Assembly: GCA_035577985.1 (NCBI GenBank)
Contig: DATJZY010000107.1
Span: forward strand, 43,475 to 107,474
Reading direction: 5' to 3'
Source: Candidatus Eiseniibacteriota bacterium
GTDB taxonomy: Bacteria > Desulfobacterota > Binatia > DP-6
Length of the DNA: 64,000 nucleotides
The notes below the pieces were generated by a model. The model ran no database searches, was not told the DNA's origin, and saw nothing but the letters and a program-made list of their open reading frames with translations. Made by a program: the position numbers and the translations under genes. This document shows positions 46,425-49,268 of this stretch, piece by piece (the first letter of the stretch is position 1; the number at the start of each line of letters is the position of its first letter).

Positions 46425-46822
46425 TGCGTCGCGCGCTCGTGGTGGTCGTCACCGCCGCCGTCGCGTTCGGCGCGATCACGCTCGTCGCCCTCGAGGGGCG
46501 CGAAGTGGTCGTCCTCGAGACCGCCGACGCACGGGGCGCGCCGCGGCGCACGCGCACCTGGATCGCGGAGGACGCCGGTGCGCTGTGGGTCGAAGCCGCC
46601 GGTCCGGAGCGCCCGTTCCTGGAGGATCTGCAGCGCACGCCGGCGCTCGTGCTGGAACGCCACGCGACGCGCCTGCGCTGCACCGCCGACGTCCAGCCGA
46701 ATCCCGGCGGACACGAGCGCATCCGGCGCCTGCTCGCCGAGCGCTACGGCTGGGCCGACTGCTGGATCGGGCTGGTCGCCGACACCTCGCACTCGTTCGC
46801 GATCCGTCTCTCGTGCGCATGA
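46424..46822 (+). CDS. Hypothetical protein (132 aa)
   Basis: This is the in-frame tail of track ORF 45698..46822. The ATG overlaps the upstream stop (TGATG), and the stop overlaps the next ATG (ATGA). It has an N-terminal hydrophobic segment. Confidence 0.45.
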   Translation: MRRALVVVVTAAVAFGAITLVALEGREVVVLETADARGAPRRTRTWIAEDAGALWVEAAGPERPFLEDLQRTPALVLERHATRLRCTADVQPNPGGHERIRRLLAERYGWADCWIGLVADTSHSFAIRLSCA

Positions 46823-47352
46823 GCGGACGCGTCTGGTACTTCGCGTACGGATCGAACATGCAGCCCGCCACGTTCGGCGGGCGGCGGGGCATCGTCCCCT
46901 TGCGCGCGGTCGCCGCCCGCCTCGCGGGCTGGCGGATCGTCTTCGACAAGCCGCCGATCCTGCCCATCGGCGAAGCCATGGCCAACCTCGTCGAGGAGGC
47001 CCGGGCCGAGGTTCTCGGCGTGGCCTACGAGGTGACGACGCACGACCTCGAGCACATCGACCTGACGGAAGGGGTGCTGATCGACAACTACCGGCGGGTG
47101 ACGGTGCGGCTGACGACGCTCGGGGATCCGCCGGCGGCGCTCGAAGCGTTCACCCTGACCTCGGACCGTCGCGATCCGGCGCTGCGGCCGTCGCGGCGAT
47201 ACATGTCGCTGCTCGTCGAAGGGGCCGAGATCCACGGCCTGCCCGCCGGCTACGTGGCGTGGCTGCGATCGGTCCCGGCGGTCGAGGAGACGCCGGAGGG
47301 GGCCGCGGCGCGAAAGCTGCTCGATCGGGCGCTGAAAAAGGAACCCCGATAG
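46819..47352 (+). CDS. Gamma-glutamyl cyclotransferase-like (AIG2/GGCT family) protein
   Basis: This is the in-frame tail of track ORF 46585..47352, starting at the ATG at 46819. The N-terminal signature YFAYGSNM is present and the length (~177 aa) fits the family. Confidence 0.7.
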   Translation: MSGRVWYFAYGSNMQPATFGGRRGIVPLRAVAARLAGWRIVFDKPPILPIGEAMANLVEEARAEVLGVAYEVTTHDLEHIDLTEGVLIDNYRRVTVRLTTLGDPPAALEAFTLTSDRRDPALRPSRRYMSLLVEGAEIHGLPAGYVAWLRSVPAVEETPEGAAARKLLDRALKKEPR

Positions 47353-47410
47353 CCTGTTTCGGCGGCTTCGGAGCCGCCGCCCGCCGGTGCTGCGGGGGCT
47401 ATCGGGGTTC
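47341..47410 (-). terminator. Intrinsic terminator for a minus-strand transcript, overlapping the 3' end of the plus-strand GGCT gene
   Basis: A 14-bp perfect stem (gaaccccgatagcc / ggctatcggggttc) encloses a loop with an inner hairpin (ggcggc-ttcgga-gccgcc). On the minus strand the stem is followed directly by a U-tract (rc of + 47334-47340 gaaaaag). There is no T-tract on the plus strand. Confidence 0.55.
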
Positions 47411-47722
47411 GGTGGTGCCTGGGTCCCCGTAGGGTGACCCAGCGACGTGTTGATCTGGGTCCGACCTAGGAGGCCACCACCTCACAGATCACCGTAGGGG
47501 ATAACGTCACTGGATCACCTCCTTCCTCTCGGCGAGAACCCCAAGGCAGGTCCAGATCCCCGCCGCCGAGGTGCGACCGCCAGTTGCCGTACCTCGGCCC
47601 CGGTCACCAGCCAACGCCGGCGCTGGAGCCTGTGTCTGCTCCGACCGGGAAGCCATGCTTACACGGTACTCTCGGGGCCCTGGGCTGTCCACCCCGGCGC
47701 GGCGTTCTCGGGCGCGCGGCGG
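47411..47722. other. Highly structured convergent intergenic region with anti-SD/16S-3'-end-like motif, strong minus-strand SD and 14-codon ORF
   Basis: On the plus strand, ggatcacctcctt lies at ~47512-47524. Its reverse complement on the minus strand is GGAAGGAGGTGATCC. A GTG lies 7 nt downstream of that SD and opens a 14-codon ORF (VTLSPTVICEVVAS*, ~47466-47510, minus strand). A 7-bp pairing (ggtggtg 47411-17 with caccacc 47475-81) encloses two hairpins. An upstream cacctcggcg segment could sequester the SD. Confidence 0.3.
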
Positions 47723-48175
47723 CTACTTCGAGCGGGCGAGCGCGACGACGACGCCTGCGCGACCCGCAGGCCGCGTCTCGTCCGCGTCGGGAACGGGTAT
47801 CGCACGTGCCGCAGCGACGAGGAGGTCGTCGACGGCCGAGAGGATCCGGCGGATCCGGCCCCACATGGTTGCCGCGGCGAGGTCGTCCTCGATCACGAAC
47901 TCGCCGTCGAGGACCTCGAGCGACCGCTCGAGGGCACGCGCCTCGTCGGCCGCGAGTCCCTCCGGCCGCAGCGTCTGCGAGCCGTAGTGGCGCGCGATCT
48001 CCTCGATGCACGCGATGCGCTGCGAGAGCTGTCCTATCGCGACGCCGAGGGCGTAGCGGTGGCGCTCCACGGCCGCCCCGTCGGCGATGCCGGACCAGAA
48101 GTGTTCTTCGAGATCCGCGTGCAGGCCCCGCAGGCAGTCGAGCTGGTGGTCGAGGTCGAGGGTGGGCAGTGCCAT
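47723..48175 (-). CDS. Hypothetical protein (150 aa)
   Basis: The ORF looks like a helical, acidic protein (MALPTLDLDHQLDCLRGLHADLEEHFW...). No confident family was assigned. Confidence 0.45.
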   Translation of the reverse strand: MALPTLDLDHQLDCLRGLHADLEEHFWSGIADGAAVERHRYALGVAIGQLSQRIACIEEIARHYGSQTLRPEGLAADEARALERSLEVLDGEFVIEDDLAAATMWGRIRRILSAVDDLLVAAARAIPVPDADETRPAGRAGVVVALARSK

Positions 48176-48281: not shown

Positions 48282-49268
48282 TCAGGACGTAGGGACGATG
48301 GTAGCCAGGCGATCCCGCGCCGCCTCGACGATGCCCCCGAGGTCGGTCGCGCAGATGGGGGGCAGCTTGCCGGTGTTGCCGGCCTTGGTCACCAGCCTGC
48401 TCGCTTTGGCGAGCTTTGCCGCCGCTTTCTTCAGCAGCCGTGCTACCTGCCGGTCGACGGTCGTCGACTGCGCACGTGCGAGGAGGTCGTCGCCGGAGGC
48501 CACGAGCCGGGGGATCTTCTTCGGGAACTTCACCCCCGCGCACGACGCGGGCGGGAGCTGCGCGAGCACGCAGCGCGCCCCGTCCAGTCCCGGAAGGGCA
48601 CAGGGCAGGGTCGTGGTGGTGGTCGTCGTCGGGCCGCTCCCCGGCGTGGTCGTGGTCGTCGTGGTCGGCACGATCGAGTTGGGGATGGGGTTCGGATCGA
48701 CCACCTCGAAGTCGTCCGCACCGACGCCGGTGTCGTCGGCGAAGTCGAGGAGACCGGTGTTGCCGCGGTCGATCCGCCGGCGGATCGCCTTGCCGTCCGG
48801 GATTCCGGACGAGGCCGCCGGTGTGCACACGAGCGGTTGTCCGTTCGAGCAGACACCCGCCGTGTCGCCCGTGTAGTTGCCCCACGAGACGCAGTCGATG
48901 ATGTCGAAGCAGATCTTGCCGCCGCTCGCGACGAACGTCGGCGTGGTGGGGAAGTCGGGCGTCACGCCGAACGCGCTCGCGACGTCCGTCGTACCGACGA
49001 GGATGGTCGCCTGGTTCACGTCGTTCGTGACGTCGGAGGGGAAGGTGAAGCCCGGCAGCGGCGTCCCGGTCGCGTCGTAGAACGTGATCGGATGGCTCGT
49101 GACGTCACCCTGCCCATCGCCGATCAGCTGCAGCATCACATAGAGCGCGGTCGGGTGCGCCGTGGAGCCCGGGAACATCTCGCGGATCTTGATCAGCACG
49201 AAGGCGCCCGCCGGCTGCGCCGTCGCGGCGAGCACGAGCGCGAGGAGTCCGAGCACGGCGGCGCGCAT
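48282..49268 (-). CDS. Secreted or cell-surface hypothetical protein with poly-Thr linker
   Basis: The 328 aa ORF has a signal peptide (MRAAVLGLLALVLAATAQPAGA), a TTTTTTTPGSGPTTTTTTT linker, Cys pairs and a Lys/Ala-rich C-terminus. Confidence 0.6.
   Translation of the reverse strand: MRAAVLGLLALVLAATAQPAGAFVLIKIREMFPGSTAHPTALYVMLQLIGDGQGDVTSHPITFYDATGTPLPGFTFPSDVTNDVNQATILVGTTDVASAFGVTPDFPTTPTFVASGGKICFDIIDCVSWGNYTGDTAGVCSNGQPLVCTPAASSGIPDGKAIRRRIDRGNTGLLDFADDTGVGADDFEVVDPNPIPNSIVPTTTTTTTPGSGPTTTTTTTLPCALPGLDGARCVLAQLPPASCAGVKFPKKIPRLVASGDDLLARAQSTTVDRQVARLLKKAAAKLAKASRLVTKAGNTGKLPPICATDLGGIVEAARDRLATIVPTS

Follow-up and report, generated by a model that had tools for sequence, protein, structure and literature searches.

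A candidate minus-strand structured small RNA, distantly related to Ms_IGR-5, with a 16S rRNA tail complement and a frame-conserved mini-ORF in a Candidatus Eiseniibacteriota contig

Results and Discussion

We have analysed a stretch of 64,000 nucleotides (nt) from the assembly of a Candidatus Eiseniibacteriota bacterium (GTDB lineage Desulfobacterota, Binatia, DP-6; GCA_035577985.1, contig DATJZY010000107.1, positions 43,475 to 107,474 of the forward strand), hereafter designated the window, and in particular the region around 47330-47722, in which an original prediction had pointed out a motif resembling the 3′ end of 16S ribosomal RNA (rRNA), a Shine-Dalgarno (SD) sequence followed by a short open reading frame (ORF), and a terminator. 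With moderate confidence, we interpret this locus as an independently transcribed minus-strand gene for a structured small RNA (sRNA) of about 320 nt (~47656-47335), a distant relative of Ms_IGR-5 (Rfam RF02471) endowed with an extra 5′ domain and a ribosome-docking core. Read from 5′ to 3′, this RNA comprises a 5′ domain of ~105 nt, a 17-nt complement of the 16S rRNA tail which ends on a GUG start codon, a mini-ORF of 14 codons, and a 3′ domain that pairs with the second half of the ORF. The 322-nt RNA has a predicted minimum free energy (MFE) of -181 kcal/mol, which corresponds to z = -5.9 in respect to shuffled sequences.

The minus-strand small transcript put forward in the original prediction is probably real, as judged from conserved promoter-like boxes, the terminator, a covarying fold and homology to an experimentally detected sRNA family. 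Comparison with relatives, which had been proposed as a check, shows that the element is conserved across lineages and that its helices covary; anatomy, conservation, covariation, frame conservation and homology are what is observed. Between contigs the RNA is ~80% identical and the flanking proteins only 41-73%, which argues for direct selection on the RNA. The other identities that had been considered, a small-protein gene, a leader or attenuator and an rRNA relic, are set aside below since the peptide is not conserved, no downstream gene is present and no rRNA match was obtained. The features of the locus, all on the minus strand, are as follows.

47686-47691: predicted -35-like box TGGACA, 17 nt upstream of the -10-like box, in a position kept in the window's sublineage
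47663-47668: predicted -10-like box TACCGT, from the alignment of upstream regions
47545-47649: structured 5′ domain of ~105 nt, within the 130-nt leader between promoter and SD1
47649-47644 with 47604-47599: helix P0 of the 5′ domain
47642-47625: helix P1, with a CACACA-type loop
47622-47605: helix P2 of the 5′ domain
47598-47565: helix P3 (GCCGAGGU/ACCUCGGC), which encloses the hairpin CGGC-AACUGGCG-GUCG
47564-47545: helix P4, with the loop GAUCUGGA
47510-47526: SD1, the 'super-SD' GGAAGGAGGUGAUCCAG, a 17-nt perfect complement of the 16S rRNA 3′ tail whose final G is also position 1 of the start codon
47466-47510: mini-ORF VTLSPTVICEVVAS*, 14 codons and UAG (GUG ACG UUA UCC CCU ACG GUG AUC UGU GAG GUG GUG GCC UCC UAG)
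47490-47494: element X (CGGUG), within the ORF and 3 nt upstream of UGUGAGG, with a proposed pseudoknot to the P5a loop CACCG (47389-47385)
47474-47483: SD2, the internal SD-like motif GAGGUGGUGG, 5′ strand of the long-range helix LR, with an AGG core that ends 11 nt before the stop
47433-47447: masking strand CGUCGCUGGGUCACC, possibly forming with 47516-47502 a lineage-specific alternative helix, AS, that would cover SD1 and the start codon
47419-47442: hairpin H4, CUGGGUCACCC-UAC-GGGGACCCAG, directly 5′ of the CACC box
47411-47417: CACC box (CACCACC), 3′ strand of LR, anti-SD-like, abutting the terminator stem
47335-47410: intrinsic terminator built as a three-way junction (outer stem, P5a, P5b and U5)
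47410-47397 with 47354-47341: terminator outer stem of 14 base pairs (bp), GAACCCCGAUAGCC with GGCUAUCGGGGUUC
47396-47380, 47379-47360 and 47339-47335: P5a, P5b and the run U5 of the terminator

Relationship to Ms_IGR-5 and distribution

The whole 64-kb window yielded no Rfam match at the gathering threshold. The search on both strands that had been suggested for the locus returned, below threshold, a match to Ms_IGR-5 at 47335-47532 of the minus strand (32.1 bits, E = 3.5e-5, covering the model from end to end at positions 1-184; the gathering cut-off is 45), and the match to small-subunit (SSU) rRNA that had been envisaged as the sign of an rRNA fragment was absent at E<=1. The alphaproteobacterial family CC2171 (RF01867), a Caulobacter sRNA, was matched at 20.1 bits (E = 0.11, against a cut-off of 75), a score resting on the SD segment AAGGAGGUGAUCCAGUG.

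Relatives were retrieved in two ways. Genomes were scanned with the pattern GGAAGGAGGTG-N20-40-TGTGAGGTGG, which gave at least 120 loci that, among the matches listed, belong mostly to Mycobacterium and other Actinomycetota; further metagenome-assembled genomes (MAGs) carry the labels Thermodesulfobacteriota, Terriglobia, delta proteobacterium or Deltaproteobacteria, Manganitrophaceae, Candidatus Binatia and, for one contig, Gammaproteobacteria. Metagenomes were scanned with the SD segment alone (GRGGAAGGAGGTGATCCAG), thus leaving the ORF unconstrained: 59 of the 93 unique matches with enough downstream sequence are elements of this kind, the others looking like chance occurrences, many of them within long open reading frames. 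Altogether, relatives are found in Actinomycetota and in Binatia, Desulfobacterota-like, Nitrospirota and Acidobacteriota MAGs, as well as in many metagenome contigs from soil (individual loci are denoted by L numbers). A scan of viral contigs gave one chance match, inside a coding region, and the plasmid search returned only the Methylobacterium locus of CC2171, through the SD segment.

The tested actinobacterial loci are true RF02471 members (52-190 bits), and the tested non-actinobacterial loci are not. Conversely, model R2, for which 19 members of the window's sublineage were used, matches actinobacterial RF02471 loci over their whole length and with boundaries identical to Rfam's, at 30-54 bits, scores which are inflated as these loci were pre-selected on SD1 and SD2. 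The covariance models hence match both ways, and other likenesses go along with this: both RNAs have a 5′ GGAAGGAGGUG(G/A)UCC super-SD, an ORF of 12-14 codons ending in ...CEV(A/V)xx*, and an internal GAGGUGG whose pairing partner, a CACC box, lies right next to a branched terminator, and the distance from SD1 to SD2 is 23 nt in the window as in the Rfam consensus. The window RNA is therefore most likely homologous to Ms_IGR-5. A number of differences are nevertheless noted: the place of the window's additional 5′ domain of ~105 nt is taken in Ms_IGR-5 by a leader of ~8 nt that comes right behind the promoter; the pseudoknot motif is CGGUG:CACCG instead of GGAC:GUCC; the match stays below the Rfam cut-off (32 versus 45 bits) and the nearest genome-derived relatives, among the matches listed, are non-actinobacterial; and the Rfam consensus structure has neither LR nor the proposed pseudoknot. 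These nearest relatives, which share the 5′ domain, are MAGs labelled Candidatus Binatia, Thermodesulfobacteriota, delta proteobacterium and Manganitrophaceae, again among the matches listed.

Ms_IGR-5 was first reported as an actinobacterial sRNA in M. smegmatis. It has been re-detected there as ncMSMEG15794c (PMC10454040), validated by RNA-seq in S. lividans (PMC8079986) and described as a stand-alone sRNA transcription unit in S. avermitilis (PMC8780764), and ribosome footprints are available on its homologues in M. abscessus and M. smegmatis (PMC4974804). Rfam lists it as 'Actinobacteria sRNA', and our literature searches (peptides, SD strings and neighbours of the M. tuberculosis locus) found no function for it. 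What appears to be new is the host range outside Actinobacteria, the 5′ domain and the structural model, with LR, the pseudoknot and a frame kept without the peptide.

Some elements share the same module in a rather different setting. Groups D (L127, L130, L146, L182, L191) and E (L129, L176) and locus L150 have a super-SD, an ORF of 10-13 codons and an internal SD-like motif, with quite different 5′ and 3′ domains; in group D a 5′ domain of ~95 nt follows a TTATAAT box. They may represent additional, undescribed RNA families. In the Intrasporangium MAG locus L071 three tandem units of ~37 nt (...CCCGUCGAGUGGCCCCGAAUGCAGCCCCCCAA...) lie ~100-210 nt downstream of SD1, in place of the 3′ domain.

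The super-SD

The motif ggatcacctcctt that had been noted at 47512-47524 of the plus strand is indeed present, and the exact match to the 16S 3′ end is longer (CTGGATCACCTCCTTCC, 47510-47526). This 17-mer occurs once in the 64 kb, whereas 0.01 occurrences are expected from shuffled sequences. The minus-strand extended SD, the GUG 7 nt past GGAGG (47510-47508) and the 14-codon ORF are equally as had been described. The duplex of SD1 with the consensus 16S tail is predicted at -36 kcal/mol, versus -11.6 kcal/mol for an SD of 8 nt; the 16S 3′-end sequence used in these comparisons is a typical one. The Rfam consensus sequences of Ms_IGR-5 and CC2171 both open with the SD1 motif, and the Rfam consensus provides independent evidence for the conservation of GGAAGGAgGugGuCc.

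The likeness to 16S rRNA had also raised the idea that the plus strand carries a decayed 3′-end fragment of a 16S gene. Indeed, positions 47489-47524 of the plus strand match the last 36 nt of a typical 16S in two blocks, ACCGTAGGGGA and CTGGATCACCTCCTT, at 26 of 36 positions and with the same spacing. However, neither strand gives an SSU match at E<=1, and the window as a whole gives none at the gathering threshold. An rRNA operon context is missing as well, and the conserved transcript corresponds to the other strand, the 16S-like strand being its antisense. The second block is kept only in a few close relatives, with one C fewer in most, while the antisense element, complete with a promoter and a terminator of its own, is retained at hundreds of loci from several phyla, which speaks for selection on the element itself. 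We consider this idea as effectively refuted.

Within 47489-47526 of the plus strand, the second block, ACCGTAGGGGA, is the counterpart of the loop and 5′ strand of helix 45, at the correct distance of 8 nt from CTGGATCACCTCCTT (26/36 positions). The RNA could in principle pair with helix 45 too; this is possibly a coincidence, as most close relatives have one C fewer and the block is absent from Actinobacteria.

In the window's sublineage a state in which SD1 is masked is plausible from the predicted folds. The partner would be the downstream strand CGUCGCUGGGUCACC, and not the upstream cacctcggcg to which SD sequestration had been attributed: the latter forms the 3′ side of helix P3, which covaries, and its place is taken in relatives by UUUCUCGGC, CCGUCGGC or UUCCUGGC, so that it is not kept as an anti-SD. 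The AS helix has 15 bp, is part of the MFE fold and is predicted at -28.8 kcal/mol; in 19 relatives it is 98% paired, with 12 invariant pairs and 0 compensatory changes. It overlaps H4, and the two cannot form at once.

The mini-ORF

We have compared the mini-ORF among the retrieved loci. In 121 of 121 pattern-selected loci a UUG, AUG or GUG lies 7-13 nt past GGAGG, in frame, and the stop codon comes three codons after ...CEV(A/V), at the same position. In the set retrieved without constraint on the ORF, the first NUG is in frame in all 59 elements having an internal SD-like motif and the stop follows this motif by 9-11 nt (11 nt in 49 of them), the ORF lengths ranging from 10 to 21 codons. 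Taking the full set of 64 short ORFs, the stop is UAG in 52, UAA in 8 and UGA in 4. Differences in ORF length correspond to whole codons (L003 versus L224; L128 versus L180 and L210; L122 versus other mycobacteria), and differences of 1 nt occur between SD1 and the start codon.

A distinct picture resulted for the peptide. Its variants include ...CEVVAS, CEVMAS, WKVVAS, CKVVAS, WT(C/R)EVPDR, MRSGQSMRRLPT, MEYCCTRQRGGNA and MNDNCIGGPQ, with MRRLPT and RGGNA also among the differing sequences, and in the lineages with MEYCCTRQRGGNA and MNDNCIGGPQ (group E and L150) the conserved (G)AGGUGG is read in another frame. Variable sites at the first, second and third codon positions number 5/5/5, 6/5/6 and 4/3/2. 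All three positions are hypervariable in codons 2-5 and fixed in the remainder of the ORF, which includes the codons CCU and UGU, despite a G+C content at third codon positions (GC3) of ~0.9 in neighbouring genes. Given that start, frame and stop are kept, while the peptide varies and the codon positions change evenly, selection appears, on these sequence comparisons, to act on translation to a defined stop and not on the amino-acid sequence.

These observations bear on the possibility that the product is a functional micro-protein of 12-14 residues (MTLSPTVICEVVAS), with an RNA structure that merely tunes its expression. The very strong SD, the correctly spaced start and the conserved start, frame and stop would fit such a gene, as would a C-terminal CEV(V/A)xx motif common to many lineages. 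Nevertheless, neither an excess of synonymous change nor a conserved peptide was found: third-position changes are not in excess (5/5/5), residues are replaced non-conservatively in the sample that is unbiased for the ORF (C by W or R, E by K), entirely different peptides occur in groups D and E and in L150, the conserved nucleotide motif is out of frame in group E and L150, and CCU and UGU are fixed against a GC3 of ~0.9. The small protein that had originally been among the proposals is accordingly a rather improbable product of this locus.

Two other frames were considered and rejected, an ORF of 61 amino acids (aa; 47507-47692) and a frame of 49 codons, from an AUG at the predicted transcript start (47656-47654, minus strand) to the UGA in CCAGUGA. 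This AUG is lacking in most relatives and the frame is broken by indels, so that it looks fortuitous.

Long-range contacts and the 3′ domain

Of the two complementary pairs that had been pointed out, ggtggtg/caccacc and ctgggtc/gacccag, both exist, and the former is backed by compensatory changes. It corresponds to helix LR, formed between GGUGGUG(G) (47481-47474) and the CACC box (47417-47411). Compensatory variants are GGUGAUGGC:GCCAUCACC, GGUGGUGUC:GACACCACC, GGUGGCUACG:CGUAGCCACC, GGUGGCG:CGCCACC and GGUGGUC:GACCACC, to which GGUGGCUGCG:CGCAGCCACC, GGUGGCUGUC:GACAGCCACC and GGUGGCCGC:GCGGCCACC are added across the family, and actinobacterial Ms_IGR-5 has an equivalent (G/C)YCACCC box directly before the terminator stem. 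As for the second pair, close relatives such as L139 and L154 lack the GACCCAG/CUGGGUC hairpin that would form with the upstream gacccag copy, and the conserved pairing is the downstream one, H4. This hairpin is 95% paired in 19 relatives, and in other sublineages a hairpin of different sequence is found at the same place.

A further contact is suggested by element X and the P5a loop. Both are invariant within the window's sublineage, and between lineages the two motifs switch together, being CGGUG:CACCG in the window type, GGACA:UGUCC, GGACU:AGUCC or GGACG:CGUCC in Actinobacteria and UGGAC:GUCCA in group C; this concerted switch in sequence argues for a pseudoknot. A third contact, between CACA of the leader or of the P1 loop and the UGUG just 5′ of SD2, is tentative and in the window type ambiguous, with compensatory support in lineages with short leaders (CACG:CGUG in L123; CGCG:CGCG in group C).

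The terminator had been described as a hairpin with a stem of 14 bp and a UUUUU run that overlaps the stop codon of the plus-strand GGCT gene. Stem, U run and overlap stand; the hairpin does not, since the stem closes a three-way junction with two inner hairpins. Pairing in the outer stem reaches 98%, compensatory pairs number 6 there and 4 in P5b, and single-sequence folds of Nitrospirota and Actinobacteria members give the same architecture. Neither the MFE fold nor the alignment of relatives shows an alternative pairing that involves the terminator stem. A simple promoter and terminator scanner found nothing at the locus: the promoter boxes are weak consensus matches, and the terminator escaped it because the stem closes a three-way junction and the loop is too large for its limits. 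Also, RNAalifold on MAFFT alignments that mix sublineages gave a poor consensus from register shifts, and pairing is understated there.

It is also conceivable that the RNA is a classical trans-acting base-pairing sRNA, in which the SD-like and anti-SD-like motifs are internal structure or seeds (for instance CACC loops targeting ribosome-binding sites of mRNAs) and the mini-ORF is incidental. The family was discovered as an sRNA, there are many mutually complementary GGUG and CACC motifs along with a conserved single-stranded CACCG loop, SD1 is masked in the MFE fold, and other sRNAs with anti-SD-like motifs are generally known. Yet start, frame and stop position are kept in at least 12 lineages, ORF length changes by whole codons while changes of 1 nt are seen just before the start, the 17-nt complementarity to the 16S tail exceeds any structural need, and relatives carry ribosome footprints. 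We regard this reading as rather unlikely.

Promoter and 5′ domain

In the window's lineage ~130 nt upstream of SD1 are conserved and preceded by sigma-70-like boxes, and from the sequence the transcription start is likely the A at ~47656, within a conserved CAT. Two sister sublineages have other sigma-70-like boxes in the same place, TAGACC...TAAAGT and TTCTCA...TGTGTACAAT. In Actinobacteria, in group C and in the Terriglobia member, the promoter is immediately upstream and the leader amounts to only ~8 nt. In the sublineage with an AUG start and the peptide ...TVICEVVAS or ...KVVAS (L132, L145, L181, L187, L189, L192, L201), a conserved motif CTATATAG...GCAAG(A/G)G is found just upstream of the RNA promoter, ~200-240 nt before SD1.

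The 5′ domain is supported by covariation. In 17 close relatives 95% of the cells are paired, with 10 compensatory pairs, against 24-54% in slid controls, and 1 of 500 shuffles reached the same. With model R1 this domain is located, right before the super-SD, in all window-type sublineages, including Binatia, Thermodesulfobacteriota, delta-proteobacterial and Manganitrophaceae MAG loci, and the same search finds none at the actinobacterial loci or at those of groups C, D and E included in it. In the alignment fitted with R1, pairing extends to 92% of the cells (34-48% in slid controls), with compensatory changes in 34 of the 36 pairs. The MFE fold of the 322-nt RNA gives the same P0-P4 helices, and no Rfam family matches the 5′ domain at E<=1.

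The promoter-like boxes are also of importance for deciding whether the element acts in cis for a neighbour, as the structured 3′ untranslated region (3′UTR) of the upstream 150-aa gene (47723-48175) or as a leader-peptide attenuator, both of which had been raised in the original prediction. No terminator lies between the 150-aa gene and the RNA, and at least 15 contigs of the sublineage share this gene order. However, the stretch just before the RNA contains conserved promoter-like boxes, and the sigma-70-like promoters at this position differ among three sublineages, which makes the 3′UTR unlikely; in Streptomyces the RNA is a stand-alone transcription unit (PMC8780764). In respect to an attenuator, no gene follows on the same strand, the next gene being convergent and overlapping the terminator, the terminator has no competing antiterminator, and the neighbours differ by lineage, unrelated ones being found in other sublineages (serS, ideR, pdxH and a pabC-like gene). 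A cis-acting role of either kind is, in our judgement, very unlikely.

Proposed mechanism and its weighing

The order of elements in the core is suggestive. SD1 is followed by a normally spaced start codon, then by ~12 nt which are unconstrained and, from ~17 nt past the first base of the start codon, by a stretch held by the predicted LR helix and pseudoknot. A length of ~12 nt is roughly that of the mRNA channel covered by an initiating ribosome. SD2, 9-11 nt before the fixed stop, would be about as far from the P site of a ribosome at termination as an SD is at initiation. As a model, the RNA most likely acts via ribosome docking and via translation that remodels its fold. The 30S subunit would bind SD1 very tightly, and the ribosome would translate the mini-ORF through the core to the fixed stop codon. 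Translation would thereby melt the long-range contacts and expose the anti-SD-like CACC box and the P5a loop, and at termination SD2 could hold the anti-SD of the ribosome. The output would be a translation-dependent conformational switch, affecting pairing in trans or stability, or else a titration of ribosomes, the peptide not being the product. For this organism we infer the ribosome binding, the direction of the switch and the cellular role.

Several points weigh against this interpretation. The constant spacing between SD2 and the stop (9-11 nt in 59/59 elements) could be purely structural, and the pseudoknot draws on three or four motif switches at the level of lineages, and not on formal statistics. 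All the comparison loci were retrieved by patterns containing SD1, and the genome set by SD2 as well, so that the invariance of these motifs cannot be judged from them and model scores are inflated. The fold of lowest energy in the sublineage hides SD1 and the start codon, for which reason the predicted access of ribosomes may be conditional or only co-transcriptional. Moreover, the evidence in this organism consists of sequence and predicted folds, and Ms_IGR-5 and CC2171 are themselves without known function.

A wider proposal is that Ms_IGR-5, the window-type RNAs, groups C, D and E and perhaps CC2171 form a cross-phylum class of 'super-SD mini-ORF RNA' that would capture the anti-SD tail of the ribosome: the 30S subunit would be held by a duplex of 15-17 bp, a frame of irrelevant sequence would be run through a tertiary core, and the ribosome would be recaptured by the internal SD at the stop. 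We advance this as a speculative idea of low probability. If true, such RNAs would sense or titrate free ribosomes and would constitute a new kind of global translation regulator, and hence an unrecognised, widespread layer of translational control; if false, the known sRNA would still have gained a broader host range and an improved family model. These hypotheses (30S binding, translation of the mini-ORF, opening of LR) are testable in tractable relatives in M. smegmatis and Streptomyces.

Comparison with other systems

CC2171 begins with GAAAGGAGGUGAUCCAGUG, that is, the full complement of the 16S tail and GUG, followed by a short ORF. In Methylobacterium bullatum (L242, 84 bits) this ORF has 24 codons and its start pairs with a segment just before the terminator, a topology as in the window. 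On the other hand, an internal SD2 and a CACC box are missing from CC2171, whose inner hairpins are also different. The design is shared but homology is not demonstrable, and the resemblance could be convergent.

Small terminated transcripts with a translated mini-ORF that also act as RNA are represented by rnTrpL/peTrpL, SgrS/SgrT and RNAIII/hld. The Sinorhizobium peptide peTrpL is reported to have 14 residues, as has the peptide of the window's mini-ORF. These systems differ in being attenuator-derived RNA or in having a conserved functional peptide, whereas the window has no downstream gene and its peptide is unconserved. Intramolecular pairing of the SD/anti-SD type, alternative folds and long-range helices between 5′ and 3′ parts are also features of expression platforms and of type I toxin mRNAs such as hok; unlike these, the window has neither a regulated downstream ORF nor a toxic one, and the 14-residue peptide varies and does not resemble a membrane peptide.

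Genomic context

The order formed by the 150-aa gene (47723-48175, minus strand), the RNA and the convergent AIG2/GGCT-like gene (46822-47352, plus strand, stop codon at 47350-47352), whose 3′ end overlaps the terminator, is kept in at least 15 metagenome contigs of the window's sublineage. The homologues of the 150-aa protein are 41-49% identical, save for the near-identical contig L221, and those of the GGCT-like protein 57-73%. The 150-aa protein has no Pfam or NCBIfam family match, and no gene was found that is shared as a neighbour across phyla. ARAGORN detected no tRNA or tmRNA in the window. At 48282-49268 (minus strand) a predicted protein of 328 aa has no Pfam or NCBIfam match and shows a hydrophobic N-terminal segment and two poly-threonine runs (TTTTTTTPGSGPTTTTTTT).

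In a sister sublineage with the peptide ...MVTCEVVGP (L025, L111, L124, L152, L235), the RNA lies directly downstream of a seryl-tRNA synthetase-like gene, as judged by eye from N- and C-terminal sequences; this neighbour is translation-related and specific to the lineage. Two riboswitches, probably unrelated to the element, were also noted near copies of it: a cobalamin riboswitch (125 bits; L081 4224-4414, minus strand) near a Binatia copy, and a c-di-AMP riboswitch (62 bits; L100 89-272, minus strand) near an actinobacterial one.

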